From contig CAZHSY010000002.1 of the NCBI GenBank assembly GCA_964535385.1, positions 6,939 through 70,938 on the forward strand: a DNA stretch of 64,000 nucleotides. Direction: 5' to 3'. Position numbers and translations under genes: made by a program. The stretch is from an uncultured Candidatus Saccharibacteria bacterium. GTDB taxonomy: Bacteria > Patescibacteriota > Saccharimonadia > CAILAD01 > GCA-016700035. Numbering within the stretch: position 1 is the first letter of the stretch; the number at the start of each line of letters is the position of its first letter. Of the stretch, positions 1,229 to 63,533 are shown piece after piece. The notes under the pieces are model-generated. The model was not told the origin of the DNA. It saw only the letters and a list, made by a program, of their open reading frames with translations, and did not search any database.

Positions 1229-1257
1229 TTGATTTTTTAGCTTTTTTATGGTAATAT
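1229..1257 (+). promoter_or_regulatory. sigma70-like promoter TTGATT-17-TAATAT
   Basis: TTGATT at 1229-1234, 17-nt spacer, TAATAT at 1252-1257; AGAAGGAG RBS lies 7 nt before the ATG at 1324. Confidence 0.5.
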
Positions 1258-1323
1258 ATAAAAATCACTAAGACAGTGATCGAGGGCGTGCCCCTCGCCG
1301 TTCCTACCAGAAGGAGTGGCTCA

Positions 1324-1734
1324 ATGCCCCTCATCCAGATCACCGCTCAGCCCGACTACTACCCCTCCGACGACCTCTCGGTCGTGAATTCTCCCCATCA
1401 GGAGATGGTTGCTGGCTTCGGCAACTCGCTTCCCGCACTGCTCGTGGCCAAGATCGATGACCTCCACATGGACGCCGACACCCCTGAGGCCGGCGTGCAG
1501 GTCACCTTCCACAAGTTCCACTCGCGGGACGTCAACGCTCCCGACCTGTGGATCCTCATCGAGTTCAGCGAAGACGGCCTGGACGAAGTCCAGCAGACCG
1601 AGGCGACCGCCAAGGTCAAGCAGATGCTGCTCGACTGGTGGGGTGACGACCTTCCCGCCAACTACGCCTGCGACATCCACTGGAGCCCGTCCCACGGCTT
1701 CCTCCGGATCGGAGGCATCGTCGCCGACTGGTAA
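1324..1734 (+). CDS. high-GC (about 62%) small protein, possible tautomerase-superfamily member
   Basis: ORF in the 1276..1734 frame, most likely starting at ATG 1324 after a strong SD; the protein begins MPLIQI (Pro1 after Met removal) and has a C-terminal HGFLRIGG resembling the 4-OT HFGIGG; GC is far above neighbouring DNA. Confidence 0.45.
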   Translation: MPLIQITAQPDYYPSDDLSVVNSPHQEMVAGFGNSLPALLVAKIDDLHMDADTPEAGVQVTFHKFHSRDVNAPDLWILIEFSEDGLDEVQQTEATAKVKQMLLDWWGDDLPANYACDIHWSPSHGFLRIGGIVADW

Positions 1735-1746
1735 CACTGTCCTCAC

Positions 1747-1800
1747 GGGCACCCCGCACATACATTGTGCGGGGTGCCCCTCTAAGGGCTCTTTTTATTT
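1747..1800 (+). terminator. rho-independent terminator
   Basis: 14-bp GC-rich stem gggcaccccgcaca/tgtgcggggtgccc followed by a ctttttattt run. Confidence 0.7.
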
Positions 1801-3505: not shown

Positions 3506-4614
3506 TGAACGGCTCCTGGAGTAATCTTATACCGGCGACCACTGGTTGACCAACCAACTTGGTGGGTCCGAAAACGACGCAAGATTACAACTTCAATAAA
3601 AGCCTTGAGATACAGGACCATATTGGTAACCCGCAGGAGGTAAAACAATGGGAAGGCCGACATAACATCCGCACGGCGGTGGGCTGCTGCGCCAAAAACC
3701 GCTGTCGCGAAGAAGATGGCAAAGTCCACGAGGAACGTGATTGCTAGGGCTGATAGCGCCCCACCACGTAACATCATGAGTGGAAAGAGCACCAAGATAT
3801 TGATGTAGTAGGCAAACATTTCAAGAATTTGGTAGCTCAAGTAGAGGTCGATTCGCTGAAAACCAAAGCCAATCTTACGATCGATAACTCCCTGCCAAAA
3901 GCCACGATACCAACGTGAAACTTGTTTGACATAGTCATTGAAGTCTTTAGGATCTTGAGTGAGAGTCTTGGCGCTCGGAATAAAGACGATCTTACCCAGC
4001 TTCTTTCGGTGAATCTGCAGGGTGATGTCGAAATCCTCTGTGAGGTTGCTGGTCTTGAAGTCCAGCTCATGCAATATATCAGCCCGGAAACAGCTGGTTG
4101 GGCCAGGGATAACTGGAATTACTCCCAGAACGTGCTGTAACCGGCGGCTAATCTCCTGCCCGAAACTATATTCATACGCCCGGTATTTAGAAATCCAGTT
4201 ACTCTTCATAGACTTCACATAGCCAGTCGCAGCCACATACTTACTCGGATCGAGATACTTCATAAATTCTTCGAAATAATTATGCTCGAAGAAACAGTCG
4301 GCATCGGCGATATGCACCCATTCATAGTGTTTTGCAATCTCGAAATGGTTCACGGCTTGCAGAATTGCACCGGCCTTGCCAGAGCGCTCAACAGTAAGCA
4401 CGTTACGGTCGAAGATGATTTCACGCGCCAGATTAGCTGTACCATCATCTGAGTTATCGTCAACTACATAAATATCGGCCATTGGCTGACCTGCAGCCAG
4501 GGCGGAACGAATCGTGTCCTGGATCACCAAAGCCTCATTGTGGCCTGGTATAATCAGGGCTAGCTTGCGCTTCGACTCAGCTTTTATAGGTTTTGGCATA
4601 ACATTTGGTGACAT
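3502..4614 (-). CDS. processive family-2 glycosyltransferase (PgaC/IcaA/cellulose-synthase-like)
   Basis: DDNSDDGT, DADCFF (DxD) and QVSRW (QxxRW) motifs; C-terminal TM helices; 4-bp overlap with the downstream deacetylase indicates an operon. Confidence 0.8.
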   Translation of the reverse strand: MSPNVMPKPIKAESKRKLALIIPGHNEALVIQDTIRSALAAGQPMADIYVVDDNSDDGTANLAREIIFDRNVLTVERSGKAGAILQAVNHFEIAKHYEWVHIADADCFFEHNYFEEFMKYLDPSKYVAATGYVKSMKSNWISKYRAYEYSFGQEISRRLQHVLGVIPVIPGPTSCFRADILHELDFKTSNLTEDFDITLQIHRKKLGKIVFIPSAKTLTQDPKDFNDYVKQVSRWYRGFWQGVIDRKIGFGFQRIDLYLSYQILEMFAYYINILVLFPLMMLRGGALSALAITFLVDFAIFFATAVFGAAAHRRADVMSAFPLFYLLRVTNMVLYLKAFIEVVILRRFRTHQVGWSTSGRRYKITPGAVQ

Positions 4615-4651: not shown

Positions 4652-4680
4652 ATAATACCAAAAATAAGTCATTTTGTCAA
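4652..4680 (-). promoter_or_regulatory. sigma70-like promoter TTGACA-17-TATTAT for the GT2-deacetylase operon
   Basis: on the minus strand, TTGACA (rc of 4675-4680), 17-nt spacer, TATTAT (rc of 4652-4657), about 40 nt upstream of the start at 4614; an extended -10 TGTATAAT on the plus strand (4649-4656) suggests a divergent promoter. Confidence 0.5.
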
Positions 4681-8414: not shown

Positions 8415-8996
8415 CTACTTCCAGGAGGGGAAGAGCTTTTTGCGATAGATAAGGAAGGCTACAAGCGCACTACACAAGGTGAAGTAAATCGGAAAAAGTA
8501 TGGCTGCACTCCACTCCCAGATTGCAAACACACCAAACAATGAAGCGACTCCTTCGATAGCGAAGAAGAGTGGATCTTCACTTTTTGGCTCATGATAGGT
8601 TTTGACGAAAGTCGGAATATAGCCGACAACATCAGCCAGGATACCGAGCGCTATAGTGAGAAGACCATTCTTGGTGACGACATAAGCCACGAGTGCCAAG
8701 ATCCCGAGACCGAGACAATAAAGATCGAGTTTTGAAGTTCCCCCTATACCATACTTGAGCGACATACCAAGCAAATACGTGGCTCGGGCTAGGAAAATGA
8801 GAGCAAAGATCTGACCGGCAACATTATCTGAATGCAAAACCCCAAGGATACCGGCTAAACTAGCAAGCCAAACGATGAGACGGGTGACTCGATGTGGTTT
8901 AGCTGATAATCGGAGCATACTTTTAGTGTAGGAAATGGGTGAAATAAGCGAGAGTATGAGTGTACCGATGATCCAAAAGTTCATTTTGCTTTTCAT
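8415..8996 (-). CDS. multi-pass membrane protein, unknown function
   Basis: 193 aa, 5-6 hydrophobic helices. Confidence 0.4.
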   Translation of the reverse strand: MKSKMNFWIIGTLILSLISPISYTKSMLRLSAKPHRVTRLIVWLASLAGILGVLHSDNVAGQIFALIFLARATYLLGMSLKYGIGGTSKLDLYCLGLGILALVAYVVTKNGLLTIALGILADVVGYIPTFVKTYHEPKSEDPLFFAIEGVASLFGVFAIWEWSAAILFPIYFTLCSALVAFLIYRKKLFPSWK

Positions 8997-9122
8997 TAAA
9001 TTACAGTAAGTATAATATTACCGATATATTAGAGGATTACCATAATCCCGACTCGTGAGTATACCTTTACAGCATGTAAACTGAGTTCAGTTTGTGGCAA
9101 ACCAACAGTAGCTTGCGAGGTT

Positions 9123-9713
9123 TTAATTTTTACTCTTTAGGCTTGTTTCAATACTTGTTTTGATCGCGTTGAGATAGGTATCGGCATTCTCAGCAGCATA
9201 GGTTGTTACATAGACGTAGTAGTAGTCACCGATCTTTACGCCAGCAAACTTATTATTTTTAGCATAATCTTCAATCGTGGTATTGCCATGGTAAATAGAG
9301 CCGTTTTTTTGTCGAACTATTTGGCCAAGCTTTTCATGTCTTTCTTGGGTACCGGAAGTCTTAATTTTTCCCTCAGCTTCTAGGGCTGGGCTATTTAGTA
9401 CTGCAACTGCGGATGCAGCCTGCCCATTCTCGGCTGGAAATTCTTGAAACGAATCAACTTTTAGGTCTGAGACTGTAGACGGAACTTCAAATTGTACACT
9501 CATCTGAGTTATCTCTAAGTACTTTTTAGTTGAGTCGGTAGACCCATCATTTGTCGCCTGAGATGTTTCGCTTTGACTTGAGGCGGAACTGTCGCTGTTT
9601 GATTTGTTGTTAGCCCAAACCTTCCAGCCAGCAAAGCCCACGACTGCAATTACTATAACCAGAGCGATTAATGCAACATGAGCGATACCTGATAGGTCAT
9701 TTTTTAGTTTCAT
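9123..9713 (-). CDS. secreted/membrane-anchored hypothetical protein
   Basis: N-terminal TM, Ser-rich linker, globular C-terminus; a TATAAT-containing hairpin lies upstream at 9795-9830. Confidence 0.4.
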   Translation of the reverse strand: MKLKNDLSGIAHVALIALVIVIAVVGFAGWKVWANNKSNSDSSASSQSETSQATNDGSTDSTKKYLEITQMSVQFEVPSTVSDLKVDSFQEFPAENGQAASAVAVLNSPALEAEGKIKTSGTQERHEKLGQIVRQKNGSIYHGNTTIEDYAKNNKFAGVKIGDYYYVYVTTYAAENADTYLNAIKTSIETSLKSKN

Positions 9714-10501
9714 ACCCCATCCTTGTTCAATTAAGCATAAGTATGACCCAAACTTTCGTAAAAGAAAACCCTAGTTCGTTGGGTTACTGCTGTTGTTTGC
9801 TCCGGGCCTATTATAATCTTTGTACTTACCCCTATAGGCCCGCATGGTTAGAATCGGCACGCCGGTCTCCTGATCGCCCAGCACCCTTGTGCGGGAGTCA
9901 TGAAAAAGAACCAGTTCTATTGGCTCGCCGGCTACATTACCGGACCACACCTCTTCAAGCGAAGTACTATCCGCCTGATTTAGGGGTGGCCTCGGTATAT
10001 TTTAGTAAGTCCTGAATAAGGCTCTGCGTTTGCGGCGGCACCTCACTCTTAGTAGTACGTGGGTCACCTTGGTCTGCGATAACGGTATGACTCTCACCCT
10101 GTTCAAGCAACTCTTGTTGGGTGTCTGGACGTAGATCCAGTTGGAAACTTCTTACGGGCAAGTTAGCATACTTCTTAGCGTCAGCTAAATCACCTGTCGA
10201 ACTAGCAGTCGGTGAAAGATCTAGAGTCTCTATACCGGCAACCATATTGGGTATATAACTATTATCATGAGCAGCTTTTTGCAGGCCTCTTCAAGTTTAG
10301 ACCGCTTCTCTTATTCGTTCATATTAAAGTCATTCCAAACGGGATCTTGCGGTTGTGGGTTTGGAGCAGGATCTGACATCTTTGCCTCTTTTTGTTATGA
10401 GCTAATTGACATATTCTATGTCAAATCCTTTGAACTTTAAAGGCTAGTGTTTATTGCTATGTCGCAACTATAGTCTTAAAGCGCAAATAAACAACAGACA
10501 C

Positions 10502-10993
10502 CTACTCAAGCCCGGTCCGCAAAATCTCATCTTCCTCCGAGTTCTTCATATCTATCCAGACTTTTCCATTCTCACTATCGAGCAATAGCTCTTGCTGGGT
10601 AATTAAATAGTCAAAGTCTTCGTATTTATCATAAGTGCGCTTGAACAGTCTATTCTCAGTACTTTGGTTGCCAGCTACAAATAAAACATTCGGATACAGG
10701 TATGTGCTCTCGTTAGCGTACTCTTCGTGCTGCCTGATACGTTTTCGTAGTAGCCAGCTTGGGGTGCCTGCCTCAAAGACATCTAGCACATAGTCAGGCT
10801 TGTCTGAGCTTCCTTTTCGTTTCAAAAAAAGCTCTGGTAGCGGACTAGGGAAAGACTCTCTATTCAGGGCGTACTTGGGGAAGATATGAAACTTGCTGCC
10901 GACTTGCCTCTTGAGAGTTAGGGCAATTCTGAAGATATAGAGGCGGCGATCAACATGTTCCTGTCGCATGGACTTGGGACTAGCAACTAACAC
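10502..10993 (-). CDS. hypothetical protein
   Basis: 163-aa ORF with no recognisable motifs. Confidence 0.3.
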   Translation of the reverse strand: MLVASPKSMRQEHVDRRLYIFRIALTLKRQVGSKFHIFPKYALNRESFPSPLPELFLKRKGSSDKPDYVLDVFEAGTPSWLLRKRIRQHEEYANESTYLYPNVLFVAGNQSTENRLFKRTYDKYEDFDYLITQQELLLDSENGKVWIDMKNSEEDEILRTGLE

Positions 10994-11175
10994 TTGGGCT
11001 TACTTCTACCTAACTCCCACACTCACTCAACAACTACTCTAAGTAGCTCTATATGTATATATAAAAGAGGAGAGAATATATTGCGAGGTTTAAAAGAGGT
11101 AAAAGCGGCCCGAAAGGGATGCTATCGTTAGTGGGGTTATCTATTTGTGTGGAGTGGGTACATTCCCTAACTGAG

Positions 11176-12163
11176 GTATACTGTTTACTATGGCAAAACA
11201 ACCGCTCAATGATGACGACAGGCAGAAGTTTTTAGACAATCTGCCAGAAGATAAAGTTAATCCAAATGCCAAGCAGAAGTTTGATAAAGCGATTGCACGC
11301 GCCGCACAGCAATCGCGATCAAAGTCGGAAAAACCGGAGCCTGACGATGATTATTGCGATACACAAACTCGTTCAGATACAGCTGAAGATACTTCCGACT
11401 CACACAGTGATACGCCCATCCATAGAGCGTTTTAGTTGTGACTAAAAACCTTCAATAGTATTGGTGTGGACAATTCCGCGACCATATTCACCAATGCTGT
11501 GGTTGACACTGTCGTGGTAGTAGCCAATGCGGTGCAGGGTTCTATAGACCCTGGCTTTATCGCTATAAACCGTTGTACCTGGAGCAATACTGGCTTGCAA
11601 ACGAGGTAGCAATACACGCGCACCAGCACTACGGACATGCTCAGCTTTAACTTTGCCACCCCGTTCAACCATACCGAATACCACAGCTTTATCCTGAGTA
11701 GTCACGTTTCTGTCACGCTCCCGGCCACCGATATATGTTTCGTCGGTTTCAACGACACCAGACAGTGGACTTCCACTTTCCAGCATGAGAGTACGAACCT
11801 GTTTAGCTATCCGCCACGCTGTTTTATAGGTTACGCCAAGATGCCGCTCAACTTCCTTAGCAGATGCACCATTCTTAGCGACTGAAAATAGGAAGATTGC
11901 ATAGAACCAGTCTTTGAGTGATGTCGAGGACTTATGGAAGATGGTATTAGCCAATGGATGTATCTGGTTACCGCAGTCTTTACACTCGTAGCATTTACGG
12001 TTTTTGACGCGGTAGTAGCTTGGGTTAGCCACGCCACATTTGGGACAGGCAGGCATGTGACCGTAGGCAAGCTCAAACATATAGTCTAGACAAGCGGTGT
12101 CGTCTGGAAAACGTTCGTTGAATTGCTTGACGGTAAATCTCATACAAACAGTGTATTACATAG
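11176..12163 (-). mobile_element. IS1595-family insertion sequence (approximate boundaries)
   Basis: the transposase occupies nearly the whole span; imperfect terminal inverted repeats ggtatactgtttactatgg (11176-11194) and cctatgtaatacactgtttgt (rc of 12144-12164); ends are not firmly defined. Confidence 0.35.
11256..12143 (-). pseudogene. IS1595/ISXO2-like transposase, frameshifted near the 3' end
   Basis: N-terminal zinc ribbon CPKCG..CKDCG and DDE region VETDETYIGG..HTNTIEGF; the ORF stops at 11442 but the conserved C-terminal motif KYLQLYLNEFVYRNNHR continues in another frame down to about 11256. Confidence 0.65.
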
Positions 12164-18945: not shown

Positions 18946-19974
18946 TTAACGGTTACTCATCACACTCCGAATATAGTCGTCCAGATTCTCCAACGCAATG
19001 CCTGTGCCTCGGGCCACTGCCAGCATCGGCTCGTCGGCTACATAGGCTGGCACACCAGTAATCTTCGTCATCAGCTTATCAATATTGCGCAGCTGACTAG
19101 CGCCGCCAGTCATGACCATGCCACGGTCGATAATATCTGATGACAGTTCTGGTGGAGTCTGCTCGAGTACGTTTTTGACCGCTGCCAGGATACTATCAAG
19201 TTCATCCTGAATCGCCTGAGTTACCTCATCGCTGTCCAATTTAATCGTCTTCGGGAGGCCAGCAATCATATCACGACCCCGAATCTGCATAGTTAGTGGC
19301 ACTTCAAGCGGTAAGGCCGAACCGATTTCTTTCTTGATATCCTCGGCTGTCTGATCACCAATAATCAAGCCATATTTGCGACGAATATAGTCGGCGATGG
19401 CCGCGTCGATCTTATTACCACCAATCCGAACTGAATTCTGGGCCACAATCCCACCGAGCGAAAGAATCGCGACCTCGGTCGTGCCGCCACCTATATCAAC
19501 GATCAAGTTCCCTGCTGGCGCCGCGATTGGGACTCCGGCTCCAATTGCGGCTGCAACTGGCTCACGAATGATATGCGCCTTGCGAGCACCAGCAGCCATA
19601 GCCGCATCAATCACCGCCCGTCGTTCGGTCGACGTTACACCAGCCGGCACTGATATCATCAGCTCTGGCCGATTAAAACGGATATTACCCGAGACTTTAT
19701 CAATATAATGTTTAAGCATGGCTTGAGTGATGCGATAATCCGCGATCACACCGTCTTTCAACGGTCGATTCGCCGTAATAATATCCGGTGTGCGGCCCAG
19801 CATCTCTTTAGCTTCGTTACCGATGGCGACGATACGGTTATCATCCACCGAGACCGCCACCACACTTGGCTCATTGGCAACAATGCCCTTCTTCGGTACA
19901 TAGACCAAAGTATTGGCGGTGCCTAAATCAATCGCGATACGACGTTTTAACATATACCCTCTATTGTACTGCAA
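18946..19974 (-). CDS. MreB/Mbl-like actin homolog (second paralog)
   Basis: IAIDLGTANT, DIGGGTTEVA and VMTGGAS motifs. Confidence 0.85.
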   Translation of the reverse strand: MQYNRGYMLKRRIAIDLGTANTLVYVPKKGIVANEPSVVAVSVDDNRIVAIGNEAKEMLGRTPDIITANRPLKDGVIADYRITQAMLKHYIDKVSGNIRFNRPELMISVPAGVTSTERRAVIDAAMAAGARKAHIIREPVAAAIGAGVPIAAPAGNLIVDIGGGTTEVAILSLGGIVAQNSVRIGGNKIDAAIADYIRRKYGLIIGDQTAEDIKKEIGSALPLEVPLTMQIRGRDMIAGLPKTIKLDSDEVTQAIQDELDSILAAVKNVLEQTPPELSSDIIDRGMVMTGGASQLRNIDKLMTKITGVPAYVADEPMLAVARGTGIALENLDDYIRSVMSNR

Positions 19975-23174: not shown

Positions 23175-23189
23175 GTACCTCCTTGATCT

Positions 23190-23325
23190 CCACGCGGCTT
23201 ACTTTGAGTGCACTGGCCGGCGTTTTTCAGACTTCAAAAATCCTCGTCGTACCTAAATACGCCTGTGGTTTTTGAAGCGATCAACCTTGGCCAGCACTAC
23301 CCAAAGATAGCCCGGTACTAGGTGG
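23190..23325. repeat. left copy of about 136-bp inverted repeat
   Basis: about 94% identical to the reverse complement of 26757-26892; contains an internal palindrome cttcaaaaa..tttttgaag. Confidence 0.75.
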
Positions 23326-23387
23326 AGGCGCGAGGGCGCTGGATGTAGCGGGTATTGGGAGTCTCACAATGTACTGCAGGCCTGGCC

Positions 23388-23577
23388 TGACTCGAAAACC
23401 AGTGCCCAACCACTCTCACAATGTACCCGGTCATTTTGAGTGAGCTCTAGGTGAGTTTTCTGATAGGAGCGGAAGAAGGCGTATATGATAATACGTCGAC
23501 TGAGCACCGCTGCAGAAAAGTCGCCTGGAGCCACTCTAAAATGGGCGGCTTTCAGGACTCGCCGACTAGCCCTTAGT
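23388..23577. repeat. dispersed intergenic element copy E2
   Basis: caggcctggcctg hairpin + gaaaaccagtgcccaaccac + ggagcggaagaaggcgtatatgataatacg core; flanked by the direct repeat tctcacaatgtac. Confidence 0.55.
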
Positions 23578-26342: not shown

Positions 26343-26674
26343 GGATGAAAACTCCATTAAACTTATTTTACTTAATGTCAAGTAAGCATAAGTGCTGTTA
26401 ATACAACTTAAAACGAGGGAAGAAGAGACTTTTACGTCGCTTCTCACCCTCGTTTCAATGGCATAATAATAGCAAACTTAAGCGTATTTGTCAATAGTTT
26501 TCAGAGTACAGTTTTACGGAGTCTTTCTTACGCTAGGTGCAATTCACCAAAGGATAAGCCCGCATAAAATAGAGACTATATGTATACGAAAAGCTCCTCT
26601 CTCAGTGCCCAACTACCCCATGTCAGCACCCAGCAATATGAGTGAGTCAGAATTGACTTTCTATGTATGGATCA

Positions 26675-26756: not shown

Positions 26757-26892
26757 CCACCTAGTGCCGGGTTACTCTGGGTAGTGCTGGCCAAGGTTGA
26801 TCGCTTCAAAAACCACAGGCGTATTTAGGTACGACGAGGATTTTTGAAGTCTGAATAACGCCGGCCAGTGCACTCAAAGTAGACCGCGTAGG
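26757..26892. repeat. right copy of about 136-bp inverted repeat
   Basis: reverse complement of 23190-23325 with about 8 mismatches; abuts the xseB stop. Confidence 0.75.
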
Positions 26893-26894
26893 GA

Positions 26895-33194: not shown

Positions 33195-33350
33195 CACTTA
33201 TGGTACAGTCGGCAAGTATCTACGCGGCTTATTTCTGGTGATGCTGAGTGATATTTATCATCGAGGAACGCAGTAGGGCGTATATGCAAATTACGGTGTC
33301 GAGTGCCGGAGAAGAAAATGCCGCTCAGCGCGCTCTAGGGTGGGCGGCCT
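33195..33350. repeat. dispersed intergenic element copy E5 (lacks leading hairpin)
   Basis: ggtgatgctgagtga..ggaacgcagtagggcgtatatgcaaattacggtgtcgagtgccgg..cagcgcgctc. Confidence 0.5.
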
Positions 33351-34649: not shown

Positions 34650-34840
34650 AGGCCTTGAAGCCAAGACCTGGCCTGACGGAGAAACCAGCGCCCAACCACC
34701 CCATGCTTGCGTCGAGTCATCTTTGGGTGATGCTGGTAAGTACTTATCGTTGAGGAGCACAGACAGGCGTATATAATTACGGTGATTGTGCACCATAAAC
34801 GAAAATACTTATCCAGCACTCCCAGAGTGGGCCGCCACTA
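34650..34840. repeat. dispersed intergenic element copy E3
   Basis: degenerate hairpin ccaggccttg-aag-ccaagacctgg + gagaaaccagcgcccaaccac + ggtgatgctggtaagta + gcgtatataattacggtg. Confidence 0.55.
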
Positions 34841-40274: not shown

Positions 40275-40284
40275 GCCGTGCGAT

Positions 40285-40318
40285 CAGGCCAGGCCTTGGC
40301 TCGCCAAGGCCTGGCCTG
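40285..40318. repeat. REP-like palindrome caggccaggccttgg-ctcg-ccaaggcctggcctg
   Basis: perfect 15-bp arms between the convergent murA and prfB. Confidence 0.8.
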
Positions 40319-40362
40319 CAACAACCATCGTGTCATCTTGAACTCGTTTCAGGATGACAGCT

Positions 40363-41445: not shown

Positions 41446-41478
41446 AAGTTTTCATTATACCGTACCTCGACAACGTTG

Positions 41479-41690
41479 CAGGCCAGGCCTTGGCTCACCA
41501 AGGCCTGGCCTGACGAGAAAAACAAACCCAGTGCTCGGCTACCCCACCTAGTACCGGGTCTTTTTGAGCGAGGTCCAGGTGGGGTTCTTTGCTAGAAGCG
41601 GAGGGAAGCGTATATGTAATACGGTGACTGAGCACCGGGGCAGAAACGCCACCTGGGGCCGCTCAAAATGGGCCGCATCGTGTAACAGAA
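41479..41690. repeat. dispersed intergenic element copy E4 (perfect hairpin + core)
   Basis: hairpin at 41479-41512, then gagaaaaacaaacccagtgctcgg, then agcggagggaagcgtatatgtaatacggtgactgagcacc. Confidence 0.55.
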
Positions 41691-43206: not shown

Positions 43207-44241
43207 TCAAGGCGGCGGAGCCACCGTCCCATTGCTGGTCTGGCCAGCGGTGTTGGTGTTGTTGTCGGGGTTTGAGGCCCCGGCAGTTCCACCAGTACTG
43301 TTGCCGGACGGACCGGAGGTCTGACCCGAAGGGGTCGTCACTCCAGAACCCGTGCCGGTACCCGGGGTACCGTAGGTAGTCGGACGGTACGGATCAGCGC
43401 CCGCCTTGGTGGCGGCCGCATCAGCGTTCTGCTGATCAACCACCTTCTCGGCGTTACCAGGCACATAGCCCGGGGTGGGCGGTTGCGGGTTGGACTGGAC
43501 GGGGTCCAGTTCCGGACCTGAGTCCGGGCTTCCGCAGTACTCACCGGTCTGGCCAGCACACTTCTTCGGCTTGGCCGGTGGTACCGTGGTCGGCGTCGTA
43601 CCCGGAGGCACGGTGGGCTTTCCAGGCTTGGCCGGCTGACCGGGAGTGGGCTGACTGGGCTGCTCGGGAGCAGGTGTCGGCGGCTTGCCGATGGGATTGC
43701 CACAATGCGACAGAACCACCGGAGTACCATCACCCAGGGTCAGAGCGACTCGCACCTGCGAGCGCCCATCATCGAAGGCTTCACAGTTCCCCTCGCCCGC
43801 ACCGCGGGTGTTGGAGAAGCCGTTGACCTTGATGATCGGCAGCGCGGGGTCCATGGGGACACCCTTGCTGTCGAGGCCCTTGGCGGCCTGCTCGTCGCTA
43901 GCATTGGACACCAGCTTGACGCGCAGATCCTTGCCAGTGCGCTCAGCCGCAAGTGCGGCGTCGGCATCGGCCTTGGTGTGGGCTGTGCGCTGCTCGAAGC
44001 ACTGCCAGTAGCCGGCGTTGTCGCCGACCTTGGAGTACAACTCCTCCCAGGTTCCAGCGCCGCCCTTGATGACAGGCGGCTCCGGATCATGGGCACCGGT
44101 CAAGACGACCGGCGTCTCGGCAGCTGCGTCGACAGGATCGTCGACGAACCGCTGTACGATCGTGGGAACGATCAGCAACAGCGCTGCTGCAACCGCCACC
44201 AGCCAGAAGAAATTCTTCTGATTGAACTTGGGCGCGCTCAT
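43207..44241 (-). CDS. high-GC membrane-anchored Cys-containing, Pro/Gly/Thr-rich secreted protein, unknown function
   Basis: about 66% GC; AGAAGGAGG RBS; N-terminal TM, Cys-containing globular domain, PTPAPEQPSQPTPGQP linker, G/T/S-rich tail. Confidence 0.5.
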   Translation of the reverse strand: MSAPKFNQKNFFWLVAVAAALLLIVPTIVQRFVDDPVDAAAETPVVLTGAHDPEPPVIKGGAGTWEELYSKVGDNAGYWQCFEQRTAHTKADADAALAAERTGKDLRVKLVSNASDEQAAKGLDSKGVPMDPALPIIKVNGFSNTRGAGEGNCEAFDDGRSQVRVALTLGDGTPVVLSHCGNPIGKPPTPAPEQPSQPTPGQPAKPGKPTVPPGTTPTTVPPAKPKKCAGQTGEYCGSPDSGPELDPVQSNPQPPTPGYVPGNAEKVVDQQNADAAATKAGADPYRPTTYGTPGTGTGSGVTTPSGQTSGPSGNSTGGTAGASNPDNNTNTAGQTSNGTVAPPP

Positions 44242-44379
44242 GGCGGCCTCCTTCTGTGATCACCGCCGTAGGCGGGTGGATGTTCGGGTACGGGTTCTGA
44301 CGGCGATGTAATCGTCATCAGAATAATACCAGAAGTCAAAGTAGGTGTGATGGGGGCGAAATGCCCCCATCACGGTTGT

Positions 44380-45171
44380 TCAGTTCGACGCTCGAGCCGC
44401 GGCTCCGGCTGACACCGAGGTATCCGCCGGAGCCGGCTGGCCGGGCTGCCAGGGTGACTGGCGGACCGAAACCTGTTCAGCCGTGGGCTGTGCGTCAACG
44501 ACGGGTGTCGTTTCGACAACTGGCGACGGATCGTCACCAGTCTGTCCACCACGACGAGCCGAAGCTCGAGCGCTGGACACCGCCGTCGAGACGGCCTGCC
44601 GGTTGGACAGAACCATGCCAGCCACGAGGCCAACGATGGCCGCAACGATCAAGGTCCAGCACCACTGAATGTTGGTCGCAGTGCCAGGTCGAACGATCTC
44701 GATCACCACGTAGGTGACGAGACCAGCCAGCGCGGCCAGTGCCAGGGGTACCCAACTGTGGGCGTCCCGAAGCTCGTTGATCGCCGCCGCCGAAGCGTTG
44801 GCGGTGACCTCGACGCCCTCGACTCGATCACCCAGCTGGGTGAACTTGAGGTCGTGATCGTCGAGCCGCTGGCCGTGGGTGGCCACGGTGCTGCGCAGAT
44901 CGTGCAGCTCGCTGTCGAGCAGGACGATGCCGCGTTGCACTGAGGCGATCTCCCCCCTGAGAGAGTTGATCAAGGCCTCCGGCACGTCGGCGCTGATGCG
45001 CTGCTCCAGACGCCGCTTGAGCTCCTCGAGGCTGGCGCGTCGGATATCGCGGTCCCGTTCCAGGGTCGCGATGCGATCCTGGTGGGACTGCAGGATGCCC
45101 GTGTGGGCTGTGACCTGACGCGCCAAGCGCGTCGCGGTCGGGTTGGTCATGATCGGTGGTCGGGGCTGCAT
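44380..45171 (-). CDS. high-GC coiled-coil two-TM membrane protein, unknown function
   Basis: about 65% GC; GGAGG RBS; about 130-aa coiled-coil then two hydrophobic helices. Confidence 0.5.
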   Translation of the reverse strand: MQPRPPIMTNPTATRLARQVTAHTGILQSHQDRIATLERDRDIRRASLEELKRRLEQRISADVPEALINSLRGEIASVQRGIVLLDSELHDLRSTVATHGQRLDDHDLKFTQLGDRVEGVEVTANASAAAINELRDAHSWVPLALAALAGLVTYVVIEIVRPGTATNIQWCWTLIVAAIVGLVAGMVLSNRQAVSTAVSSARASARRGGQTGDDPSPVVETTPVVDAQPTAEQVSVRQSPWQPGQPAPADTSVSAGAAARASN

Positions 45172-45238
45172 GGCCCCTCCTCTCTTTGTCTTTTCGTCGA
45201 ACTGTGGGGTTCGCGTCCGGTTTTGGACGTCTGGCGCA

Positions 45239-45267
45239 TATTACCATAAATCGATGAAAAAATCAAG
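45239..45267 (-). promoter_or_regulatory. promoter TTGATTTTTT-N7-TTTATGGTAATAT (near-identical to the 1229-1257 promoter)
   Basis: minus-strand TTGATT (rc of 45262-45267), 17-nt spacer, TAATAT (rc of 45239-45244) with extended TGg; 23 of 29 positions identical to the promoter of the other high-GC gene. Confidence 0.45.
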
Positions 45268-56759: not shown

Positions 56760-56950
56760 TGGCCTCCTTGACAATCCTATTGCAATGCCCAGCCACCCCC
56801 ACTCGGTACCCGATTGTCTCTCAGTAATACTGGTGAGTATTTCCTCTCAAGGAGCGCGAGGAAACGTATATATAATTACGCTGGTGAGCATTGGAGAGTA
56901 AAATGCTCACCAGCGCGCTGAAGACGAACGGCGCTCAGGACTCACCGACG
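56760..56950. repeat. dispersed intergenic element copy E6
   Basis: agtaatactggtgagtatttcctctcaaggagcgcgaggaaacgtatatataattacgctggtgagcat..atgctcaccagcgcgctgaagacgaacggcgct. Confidence 0.55.
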
Positions 56951-60296: not shown

Positions 60297-61369
60297 TAGT
60301 GTGGAGTCTTCTCGTACTGAGTTGTCACCAGCACGTCCTTAAGTTCATCAATATCCTCAAGTACCGCACCCGTACCACGAGCTACTGCTGTTAACGGATC
60401 ATCGGCAATGACCACGGGCATTTTCGTCTGCTGAGCGAGCAATTGATCTAAGCCTCGCAAGAGTGCGCCACCCCCAGCCAAATAAACTCCTTTATCCATG
60501 ATATCGGCGATGAGCTCTGGTGGTGTCTCTTCAATAGTGTCTTTGACGGCGTTAACGATCGCCCGAACTGACTTCGACAGAGCTGCCCGGACTTGGTCCG
60601 AATTAATAATCACTTCCTTAGGTAGGCCCGTCACAATATCACGACCACGAATCGGTGCCTCCAAGAGATGCTCCAGCTCATGAGCCGAACCAACCGAAAT
60701 TTTAATTGCCTCAGCCGTCCGCTCGCCGACCTGTAAATTAAATTCTTCTTTAGCATAGGCCATGATGTCTTCGGTCAGCTCATCACCAGCGATACGAATA
60801 CTGCGACTGGCCACAATCCCACCCAGCGAAATGACAGCCACCTCACTCGTGCCACCGCCGATATCCACCACCATACTACCAGCCGCATCGTGAACCGGCA
60901 GATTTGAACCAACGGCCGCAGCCATCGGTTCTTCGATCAAAAAAGCCTGCCGTGCACCGGCGTTGGTTGCGGCGTCTTCCACGGCTCGCTTCTCGACCTC
61001 AGTGACACCAGAAGGGATGCCGATCACGACCCGTGGCCGTGGCAGGAGCGCAAAATGCTGCTTTTGGACTTTATCCAAGAAATATTTCAGCATTTGTTCG
61101 GTGACTTCGAAGTCTGACACCACCCCATCGACCAGTGGTCGACTAGCGACAATGTTAGCTGGCGTCTTGCCAACCATGCGCTTAGCCTCATCGCCAATCG
61201 CCAGAATCTGACGAGTCTTATTGTTGATCGCTACCACACTTGGCTCATCGATAATAATGCCTTTGCCGCGTAAATACACCAAAGTATTAGCCGTCCCCAA
61301 GTCGATACCTATATCGTGAGACAGCCGGCCGAAGACATCTGGCAATCGTAGCTGTGAGAATTTCATGTT
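60296..61369 (-). CDS. mreB: rod shape-determining protein MreB
   Basis: start placed at MKFSQLRL with AGAGG RBS; IGIDLGTANT, DIGGGTSEVA and LAGGGALL motifs. Confidence 0.88.
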   Translation of the reverse strand, partial: NMKFSQLRLPDVFGRLSHDIGIDLGTANTLVYLRGKGIIIDEPSVVAINNKTRQILAIGDEAKRMVGKTPANIVASRPLVDGVVSDFEVTEQMLKYFLDKVQKQHFALLPRPRVVIGIPSGVTEVEKRAVEDAATNAGARQAFLIEEPMAAAVGSNLPVHDAAGSMVVDIGGGTSEVAVISLGGIVASRSIRIAGDELTEDIMAYAKEEFNLQVGERTAEAIKISVGSAHELEHLLEAPIRGRDIVTGLPKEVIINSDQVRAALSKSVRAIVNAVKDTIEETPPELIADIMDKGVYLAGGGALLRGLDQLLAQQTKMPVVIADDPLTAVARGTGAVLEDIDELKDVLVTTQYEKTPH

Positions 61370-63485: not shown

Positions 63486-63490
63486 GGTTG

Positions 63491-63524
63491 CAGGCCAGGC
63501 CTTGGCTAACCAAGGCCTGGCCTG
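63491..63524. repeat. REP-like palindrome caggccaggccttgg-ctaa-ccaaggcctggcctg
   Basis: perfect 15-bp arms. Confidence 0.8.
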
Positions 63525-63533
63525 ATCGCATCC

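Follow-up and report, generated by a model that had tools for sequence, protein, structure and literature searches.

A 64,000-nucleotide stretch of a Candidatus Saccharibacteria contig, in the following called the window, was analysed with respect to a short unit at positions 1229-1800, which contains one GC-rich gene, the open reading frame (ORF) 1324-1734 (ORF 1324). The features of this unit are compiled in Table 1, together with those of a second GC-rich unit of the window, which has a related promoter. Judged by its signals, the region 1229-1800 is a single, complete and self-sufficient transcription unit that comprises a promoter, a leader of about 60 nt, an ORF of 136 codons and a terminator with a long hairpin.

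Table 1. Predicted features of the two GC-rich units of the window.
Feature	Position	Strand	Details	Basis
Sigma-70-type promoter	1229-1257	+	-35 TTGATT 1229-1234; 17-nt T-rich spacer; TG 1249-1250; -10 TAATAT 1252-1257	sequence; class kept in orthologs
Structured 5′ leader	1264-1323	+		fold; conservation across orthologs
Coding sequence (CDS), ORF 1324	1324-1734	+	ATG 1324 to TAA 1734; 136 aa	ORF list; family searches; fold models
Intrinsic terminator	1739-1800	+	two-tier hairpin 1739-1789; U-rich tail 1790-1800	fold energy; recurs after orthologs
Second promoter of the class	45238-45266	-	TTGATTTTTT-CATCGA-TTTATGGTAATAT; drives the GC-rich two-gene operon	
GC-rich two-gene operon	43207-45171	-	hairpin terminator at about 43150-43185	
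Gene of a 263-aa coiled-coil protein	44380-45171	-	two transmembrane helices	
Gene of a 344-aa membrane-anchored protein	43207-44241	-	Pro/Thr-rich	

The promoter of the unit had originally been described as a textbook TTGATT-17-TAATAT promoter. Both hexamers and the 17-nt spacing are indeed present, but "textbook" was overstated, as the promoter shares 8 of the 12 hexamer positions of TTGACA/TATAAT and was missing from the list of a consensus scan. That the promoter is strong is suggested by the TG of its extended -10 element (at -15/-14), by the spacer length of 17 nt and by the conservation described below. The Shine-Dalgarno (SD) sequence of the original prediction was verified; it is AAGGAG at 1311-1316, separated from the ATG by 7 nt. 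Likewise, the GC-hairpin terminator could be substantiated. It consists of a 14-bp G+C stem that is nested in an outer stem of 5 bp and is followed by UCUUUUUAUUU. The hairpin has a folding energy of -38.3 kcal/mol (z = -7.9), and none of 200 shuffled sequences was equally stable. A two-tier hairpin with a TTTCAT-type tail is also found 3′ of the gene in orthologs. A longer ORF that would start with GTG at position 1276 was ruled out; the orthologs keep the SD sequence and the Met-Pro-Leu start. The mRNA of the CDS itself showed no excess of structure over shuffled sequences (z = -0.87).

Directly 3′ of the terminator, the window contains a perfect tandem repeat of three 37-bp units (1828-1938), which is a break point of Logan contigs from this strain. 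The core of the repeat is the palindrome CAGGCCAGGCCTTGG..CCAAGGCCTGGCCTG, which is also present in solitary form in the intergenic regions 40281-40319, 41475-41513, 63487-63525, 23378-23429 and 34664-34715. These palindromic repeats look like hairpins of the repetitive extragenic palindrome type and possibly are bidirectional terminators.

The GC content of ORF 1324 was 0.630, close to the earlier value of about 62%, and it was very unevenly distributed over the three codon positions (GC1 0.650, GC2 0.365, GC3 0.876), with GC2 being below the window average. For the 34 ordinary genes of the window the mean GC3 was 0.535 (standard deviation 0.046, maximum 0.63), and ORF 1324 thus has a z-score of +7.5, showing that its codon usage is not normal. 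The ratio of codons ending with C to those ending with T (NNC:NNT) was 32:3 in ORF 1324 versus 1044:1576 in the other window genes, so that C-ending codons make up 91% of its NNY codons; the respective NNG:NNA ratios were 15:2 and 1406:907. The AT-rich flanks that had been claimed were not found. The GC content of the whole window is 51%, that of the upstream gene 54% and that of the downstream gene 48%, and AT-richness around ORF 1324 is confined to the promoter of about 40 nt.

The leader is predicted to be structured (folding energy -25.4 kcal/mol, z = -2.7). Hairpin P1 (1264-1269/1275-1280) is located at the very 5′ end of the predicted transcript. It is followed by a G-rich arm (1282-1287) with two alternative partners, namely 1292-1296, with which it would form hairpin P2, or the start-codon region 1324-1332 (AUG-CCCCUC). 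Hairpin P3 (1297-1305/1312-1320) has 9 bp and is predicted to sequester the SD sequence. The approximately 60 nt of the leader were better kept than the protein, with 74% identity in six orthologs whose proteins share only 51-69%. In an evaluation of 20 pairs in six sequences 93% of the cells were paired, compared to 38-59% for slid partners. The loci L010, L013 and L014 of relatives have hairpins at the same place of the leader, and their stem sequences are unrelated. Rfam contained no match inside 1258-1323 at E ≤ 10, and a covariance model of the leader retrieved nothing beyond the sequences on which it had been trained, without a further copy in the window. Because three different ORFs of L013 are preceded by one and the same promoter and leader start, it is inferred that the leader is a generic expression or stability module and not a ligand-specific riboswitch. 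Its role would be that of a stabilising hairpin at the 5′ end and/or the control of access to the SD sequence. For both roles similar elements are known. Like the 5′-terminal stabiliser hairpins of the ompA/aprE type, the leader hairpin starts a few nucleotides from the predicted transcript start, and like in the SD-masking RNA thermometers (ROSE, fourU), a UUCCU-containing arm pairs with the SD sequence, G-U pairs included. Unlike all of these, the leader has no Rfam match and weak covariation.

The protein encoded by ORF 1324 belongs to a family without previous annotation. A search of 5.8 × 10^9 proteins yielded 10 relatives with 47-100% identity, none of which has a Pfam domain, and an exhaustive profile search of 1.84 × 10^9 cluster representatives yielded 155 matches at E ≤ 10^-3, nearly all of which have a length of 130-150 aa. 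Where taxon labels were given, they were Candidatus Saccharibacteria in all cases but one, a metagenome-assembled genome labelled Verrucomicrobiae. Genome and metagenome locus scans with the family returned one and three loci, respectively. The start M1-P2-L3 is invariant in the 10 close homologs, and 124 of 159 family proteins start with [MV]P. Of the other 35, many resemble miscalled starts or fragments, and a few are genuine variants without the proline.

Comparisons with curated families did not yield an assignment. Pfam gave no relevant match at E ≤ 1 for the ORF 1324 protein and 99 family members, and NCBIfam, PHROG and PADLOC searches with the ORF 1324 protein did not reveal any match. 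Sequence and profile searches of the PDB retrieved no tautomerase and just cysteine dioxygenase matches at chance level (E of about 0.4). An alignment of the family with an approximate human MIF sequence using hhalign had a probability of 0.2%.

AlphaFold models of the protein reached pLDDT values of 83.7 with an alignment of 10 sequences and of 97.2 with an alignment of 99 sequences. In both models the order of strands (E) and helices (H) is E3-8, H24-42, E59-64, E75-80, H88-109 and E114-119, followed by a C-terminal hairpin. In a Foldseek comparison with the PDB, the matches listed all belonged to the tautomerase superfamily or were designed cages derived from its members. They included MIF, D-DT, fused 4-OT, cis-CaaD/Cg10062, CHMI, MSAD, DUF1904 and 1u9d. 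The probabilities were mostly 0.9-1.0, the best E-value was 3 × 10^-5, and the TM-scores ranged from 0.33 to 0.61. As the matches listed for a model with a high pLDDT are confined to structures of this superfamily and Pro-2 is conserved, the ORF 1324 product is, according to the models, a divergent member and the founder of a new, previously unannotated family of the tautomerase-superfamily fold. The original guess that the protein is tautomerase-like thus held with regard to the fold and the conserved N-terminal proline, while a match to any curated sequence family was not obtained. The C-terminal GF.RIGG motif, on which the guess had also been based, is conserved as His124/Gly125, and its remainder is not kept in the wider family.

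The duplicated beta-alpha-beta fold and an N-terminal proline right before strand 1 are common to the ORF 1324 protein and the tautomerase superfamily, and the closest members by size are the two-repeat proteins of about 115-150 aa (MIF, CHMI, cis-CaaD). Unlike the known tautomerases, the ORF 1324 protein has long inserts (residues 9-23 and residues 43-58) as well as an additional beta-hairpin at the C-terminus that ends with a conserved tryptophan, and its family lacks a profile link and a conserved arginine pair and is, where labelled, nearly exclusively found in Saccharibacteria. The catalytic N-terminal proline (Pro-1) cooperates with Arg11/Arg39 in 4-OT, with His28/Arg70/Arg73/Tyr103/Glu114 in cis-CaaD, with Asp37/Arg73/Arg75 in MSAD and with Lys32/Tyr95/Asn97 in MIF. 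The Arg/Lys/Tyr constellations of the five families that have been characterised were not reproduced in the conservation table of 99 family sequences. The conserved polar residues in this table are Gln59, Asn71, Glu83, Asp117 and His124 (66%), and the conserved tryptophans are Trp76, Trp120 and the C-terminal Trp136. It is proposed that the ORF 1324 product is a small-molecule enzyme that depends on Pro-1, which would be exposed after removal of the methionine. Members of the superfamily form homotrimers or homohexamers, in which the active sites are located where subunits meet. By analogy with other superfamily members of such length, the ORF 1324 product is probably a trimer.

The most probable alternative concerns this proposed activity. 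The protein might have the tautomerase fold without having an enzymatic role, and it might instead serve in large amounts as a binding protein, a structural protein or a secreted effector at the interface between epibiont and host. Parasites use MIF homologues to act on their hosts, and parasite MIFs were among the top fold matches. Also the replacement of the known active-site constellations by a different set of conserved residues, i.e., Gln59, Asn71, Glu83, Asp117 and the three tryptophans, and the occurrence of variants without the proline (P0038 starts with Met-Ser) would be in accordance with a non-enzymatic function. However, the prevalence of Pro-2 in the family is hard to explain without a catalytic role, and an evident signal peptide is not present, as the N-terminus leads straight into strand 1. 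A function without catalysis is therefore regarded as clearly less probable than a function as an enzyme.

The genomic contexts of the gene were also compared. In the window, ORF 1324 is flanked by two ordinary envelope genes, for a DUF3048 protein and for a polysaccharide deacetylase, and its neighbourhood also encodes a glycosyltransferase and pilins. The close orthologs do not share any synteny. In L011 (3515-4640) a gene for the transfer-messenger RNA (tmRNA; Rfam score 89 bits, also detected by ARAGORN) ends at position 3903, and the promoter of the family gene begins at position 3904. The sequence GCTCCACCA, which comprises 9 nt of the 3′ end of the tmRNA, is repeated together with the promoter 706 nt downstream, in front of other small ORFs. 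This is the pattern that would be expected from site-specific insertion at ssrA. In L013 (1-3334), at least five mini-cassettes with lengths of 600-700 bp form an array; they carry promoters and have a different small ORF per unit, with GC3 values of 0.56-0.79. Each unit is bounded by a repeat of about 50 nt, the end of which (ATCCAATGAGGCCCACCA) resembles the 3′ end of the tRNA that precedes the gene in L010; L010 begins inside the 3′ half of this tRNA, ahead of the family gene. In three units of L013 a 78-nt module of promoter plus leader is present, with identities of up to 96% and different small ORFs behind it. In L015 the ortholog is adjacent to a gene for a terminase small subunit (1e-19), which has a GC3 of 0.44. 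Because the orthologs are located at a tmRNA gene, in repeat-bounded arrays and beside a terminase gene, it is proposed that the whole unit is a mobile, "moron-like" accessory expression cassette, of which the promoter class, the leader, the GC3-rich ORF and the terminator architecture are kept in orthologs. For the window's own copy, mobility is suggested by these relatives.

The proposed cassette has features in common with two known types of elements. As is typical for phage morons, ORF 1324 is a single ORF with its own promoter and terminator and with a composition unlike that of its neighbours, and the ortholog in L015 adjoins a phage gene. Unlike morons, the window copy lies outside of a prophage, no family member is present in the phage collections that were searched, and the deviant composition is confined to synonymous positions and persistent in evolution. 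Like in integron arrays and in islets that target tRNA or tmRNA genes, the gene is one of several short tandem units in L011 and L013, and each unit is bounded by a repeat of a tRNA or tmRNA 3′ end; L010 probably has such a boundary as well. However, integron cassettes normally are promoterless, while the units of L011 and L013 carry their own promoters, and in addition neither an attC-like palindrome nor an integrase was seen on the short contigs of the relatives. The window has no such boundary; a CCACCA+TTGAY junction was not found above chance, and a copy of the L013 repeat is not present. In the literature no paper was found that links Saccharibacteria with tautomerases, with tmRNA-adjacent cassettes or with such arrays.

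The age and cause of the GC3 excess were evaluated using the orthologs. GC3 was 0.79-0.94 in the orthologs of L006, L010, L011, L013, L015 and L018, compared to about 0.30-0.56 in neighbours outside of islands. The individual values for the ortholog and its neighbours were 0.94 and 0.43 (L018), 0.89 and 0.44-0.49 (L015), 0.86 and about 0.5 (L010), 0.86 and 0.53-0.59 (L011), 0.83 and 0.43-0.45 outside of its own island (L006), and 0.69 and 0.30-0.45 (L005). The AT-rich relative L004 shows no GC3 bias. The fraction of identical codons was 0.64 between the window gene and its L011 ortholog and 0.72 between the window gene and its L018 ortholog, while 0.61 and 0.67, respectively, were expected from the codon biases alone. 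As the silent sites are saturated in both comparisons, the bias must have been maintained independently in each lineage. At the protein level there is no corresponding trend. The Arg:Lys ratio of the ORF 1324 protein is 2:4, and the fraction of Ala+Gly+Pro+Arg is 0.23, compared to 0.28 in the proteome of the window. After a long stay of the gene in a GC-rich genome, these values and GC2 would all have been raised. Taken together, the comparisons indicate that the GC excess of ORF 1324 is purely synonymous and is an old, conserved trait of the family. The extreme GC3 is thus maintained at silent sites over a long divergence and is not the scar of a recent import from a GC-rich source. The bias may be caused by GC-biased gene conversion in a pool of recombining cassettes or by repeated re-acquisition from a reservoir.

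A conventional explanation for these results would be that ORF 1324 is an ordinary, vertically inherited gene with very high expression, that its GC3 reflects translational selection, that its promoter is simply the strong local consensus, and that no mobility is involved. The combination of a consensus-like extended -10 promoter, a good SD sequence, a 5′-terminal hairpin and a strong terminator, and the preference for C-ending codons, which is retained in orthologs, are in agreement with this view, and the absence of excess structure in the CDS removes a special RNA structure as an alternative cause of the bias. However, GC3 is an ordinary 0.50-0.53 in two other window units that have a consensus extended -10 promoter, the ATP-synthase genes of a related genome have an ordinary GC3, and the bias is missing in L004. 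Moreover, translational codon selection is a weak force in bacteria that grow slowly and possess a single rRNA operon and a small number of tRNA genes. Vertical inheritance is furthermore at odds with the lack of synteny and with the location of some orthologs in repeat-bounded cassette arrays or next to a phage gene. This explanation is therefore thought to be unlikely.

The original prediction had called ORF 1324 foreign-looking, and a recent import from a GC-rich donor, e.g., the actinobacterial host of an epibiont, would be another possibility, in which case the gene would have captured or would have landed behind a native strong promoter. The high GC3 with its preference for both C- and G-ending codons, long spurious ORFs in other frames, which are typical for GC-rich DNA, the varying genomic contexts of the orthologs and at least one Ala/Arg/Pro-rich family representative (P0039), which suggests a GC-rich genome, fit to such an origin. 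In contrast, the signature of a GC-rich proteome is missing from the protein, and the same excess is present in orthologs that are 49-69% identical, are saturated at silent sites and reside in genomes with 35-55% GC. The labelled family members are, apart from the single exception, all from Saccharibacteria, and the signals of the unit (promoter, leader, terminator) have been conserved along with the gene and were thus not captured locally. An import is therefore improbable, and "foreign-looking" is not an appropriate description of a gene with an excess that is confined to silent sites and conserved in its family.

The promoter of ORF 1324 had been reported to be identical at 23 of 29 positions to the promoter of the gene 44380-45171, and this could be exactly confirmed for the site 45238-45266 on the minus strand. 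All 23 specified positions of TTGATTTTTT-N6-TTTATGGTAATAT are identical, and the string occurs exactly twice in the window, at these two sites; a third site was not found with up to 3 mismatches, and 100 shuffled windows did not contain any match. The identity extends by 3 nt in the upstream direction (TAC) and then ends. The cores of the spacers, AGCTTT in front of ORF 1324 and CATCGA in front of the operon, are unrelated, as is all sequence outside of the shared blocks. The same promoter class is present upstream of the orthologs of ORF 1324 in at least nine other genomes, e.g., as TTGACTTTTTACTTATTTTATGCTAATAT in L015, TTGACTTTTTACTTATTTTGTGCTATTAT in L005, TTGACTTTTTATACTACTTGTGCTATTAT in L010, TTGACCGATTATTGTTTTTATGCTATTAT in L006, TTGACTAACGTCAATGCTTATGGTAGTAT in L014 and TTGACTTATAATGAATATTATGCTATAAT in L011. 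It is also present, as TTGCTTTTTTTATGAATTTATGGTAGTAT together with a conserved leader, upstream of the sole known ortholog of the operon gene, which is located in L025. Each of the two window promoters is identical at 24 of 29 positions to the promoter of its own ortholog (L015 and L025, respectively). As the spacers differ completely and each promoter is equally close to that of its ortholog, the two promoters are not recent copies of one another, and the comparisons indicate that they are representatives of a lineage-wide conserved class, TTGAYTTTTT-N6-TTTATGSTAWTAT.

Within the 64 kb, this class was found only at the two GC-rich units and not at ordinary genes. Three further extended -10 promoters of the window, at 4680, 26494 and 43105 on the minus strand, have a different form (TTGACAAAAT type / TTGACAAA(A)T). 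Two of them drive the genes with ordinary GC3 values mentioned above, and the third, at 26494, precedes a short hairpin-terminated transcript. At this site (about 26395-26494, minus strand) a hairpin and a T run come almost directly after the promoter, which is of the extended -10 type and close to the consensus (TTGACA-17-TATTAT), and an ORF is not present; the region is a candidate for a small RNA of about 60 nt.

The two options that had originally been offered for the shared promoter were a common recent origin and a preferred strong native promoter that captured both genes. The second comes closest insofar as the promoter is native to the lineage, yet a capture does not fit to the conservation of promoter, leader and terminator with the gene. 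A duplication or movement of a cassette within the genome, with the two promoters as recent copies, is most improbable, as the unrelated spacers and flanks and the equal similarity to the orthologous promoters outweigh the identity of the 23 specified and 3 upstream bases at two sites where none were expected by chance, and also the fact that a true duplication of promoter plus leader exists in L013, where the modules at 498 and 3087 share 96% of 78 nt. It is instead proposed that the shared promoter is the class of the lineage for such units and that this class would travel with small, GC3-rich accessory units.

The second unit, the GC-rich operon, differs from ORF 1324 in composition. Its GC content is raised at all codon positions, with GC2 values of 0.52-0.57 and GC3 values of 0.73-0.77. 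The 263-aa protein has a GC2 of 0.52 and an Arg:Lys ratio of 24:2; it matches phrog_1193 "hemolysin" (XhlA-like) with 1.2e-8, and one homolog with 66% identity is known. Unlike ORF 1324, the operon thus does carry the compositional signature that would be expected of a GC-rich source.

When all results are combined, the reading that is favoured, with moderate confidence, is that the unit 1229-1800 is a complete transcription unit for a member of a tautomerase-fold family, that it is a mobile cassette, and that its GC3 excess is an old feature of silent sites. Several observations weigh against this reading and have to be taken into account. The start of transcription and the expression of the unit are predictions, and the promoter has the mentioned agreement of only 8 of 12 positions with the consensus. 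The covariation in the leader is weak, with 2 pairs changed on both sides, a number that is matched by 33 of 500 shuffled alignments. The fold match is moderate, with TM-scores of about 0.4-0.55, and no sequence profile ties the family to any tautomerase family. A conserved arginine pair is missing, only one arginine (position 95) is conserved in more than 50% of the sequences, and neither a lysine nor a tyrosine is conserved. In a distant, syntenic subfamily (L021, L023, L024) one member begins with Met-Ser instead of Met-Pro, and this subfamily has no GC3 excess and a weaker promoter. With regard to mobility, no tRNA gene, att-like repeat, integrase or phage gene was found near ORF 1324, the nearest and sole tRNA gene of the window being 20 kb away, and neither the IMG/VR contigs nor the INPHARED GenBank phage records yielded a family member.

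A more far-reaching model, which is speculative and rather unlikely in its full extent, would be that Saccharibacteria share a pool of mini-cassettes of about 600-700 bp, each with the shared promoter and leader, a small GC3-rich ORF and a terminator. These would be inserted one after another at tRNA and tmRNA 3′ ends by a recombinase acting in trans, similar to integrons, with each cassette bringing or regenerating its own promoter. The pool would have dispersed members in ORF 1324 and the operon at 45171, and the GC3 excess would be its hallmark, e.g., via GC-biased gene conversion.

Several further features were observed in the window. An intergenic repeat of about 100 nt is present in five copies (1990-2098, 23455-23560, 33255-33345, 41583-41690 and 56841-56950), every one of which is located just past the stop codon of a gene on the minus strand. 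It has the core CGTATAT(A/G)TAATTACGGTG.CGAGCACCG..GAAAAT and contains a small hairpin, and Rfam revealed no match at the gathering score. The repeat could function as a 3′ element, encode a small RNA or carry a promoter. An inverted repeat of 120 nt with 95% complementarity is formed by 23187-23306 and 26775-26894; the two arms are about 3.5 kb apart, and the segment between them, which contains three genes, may be invertible or transposable. A stretch of low GC content (0.41-0.45) with small unannotated genes extends from 8415 to 12143 and adjoins a gene for an IS1595-type transposase (11442-12143, minus strand). Lastly, 19249-19939 and 60617-61313 are diverged paralogs at a distance of 41.4 kb, with 74-78% DNA identity over several blocks, and the left paralog starts like a MreB/actin-type protein.

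The results extend the tautomerase superfamily by a family without sequence relatives and with an unusual set of conserved residues. Its members occur in obligate epibionts, a lineage of which the accessory genes are almost all uncharacterised, and the conserved expression signals suggest that the protein is abundant, which would make it a practical target for biochemistry. The bias in GC3, which is restricted to synonymous positions, persists in organisms in which selection on codon usage is expected to be weak, and the standard explanations fit poorly. The case of ORF 1324 also exemplifies that a GC-rich gene with its own promoter need not be a recent foreign gene. The arrays of cassettes that relatives carry at tRNA and tmRNA genes hint at an undescribed way to organise and move accessory genes in Saccharibacteria, and the interest in this unit would rise if a real recombination system were found behind the arrays or a new cause behind the GC3 bias.

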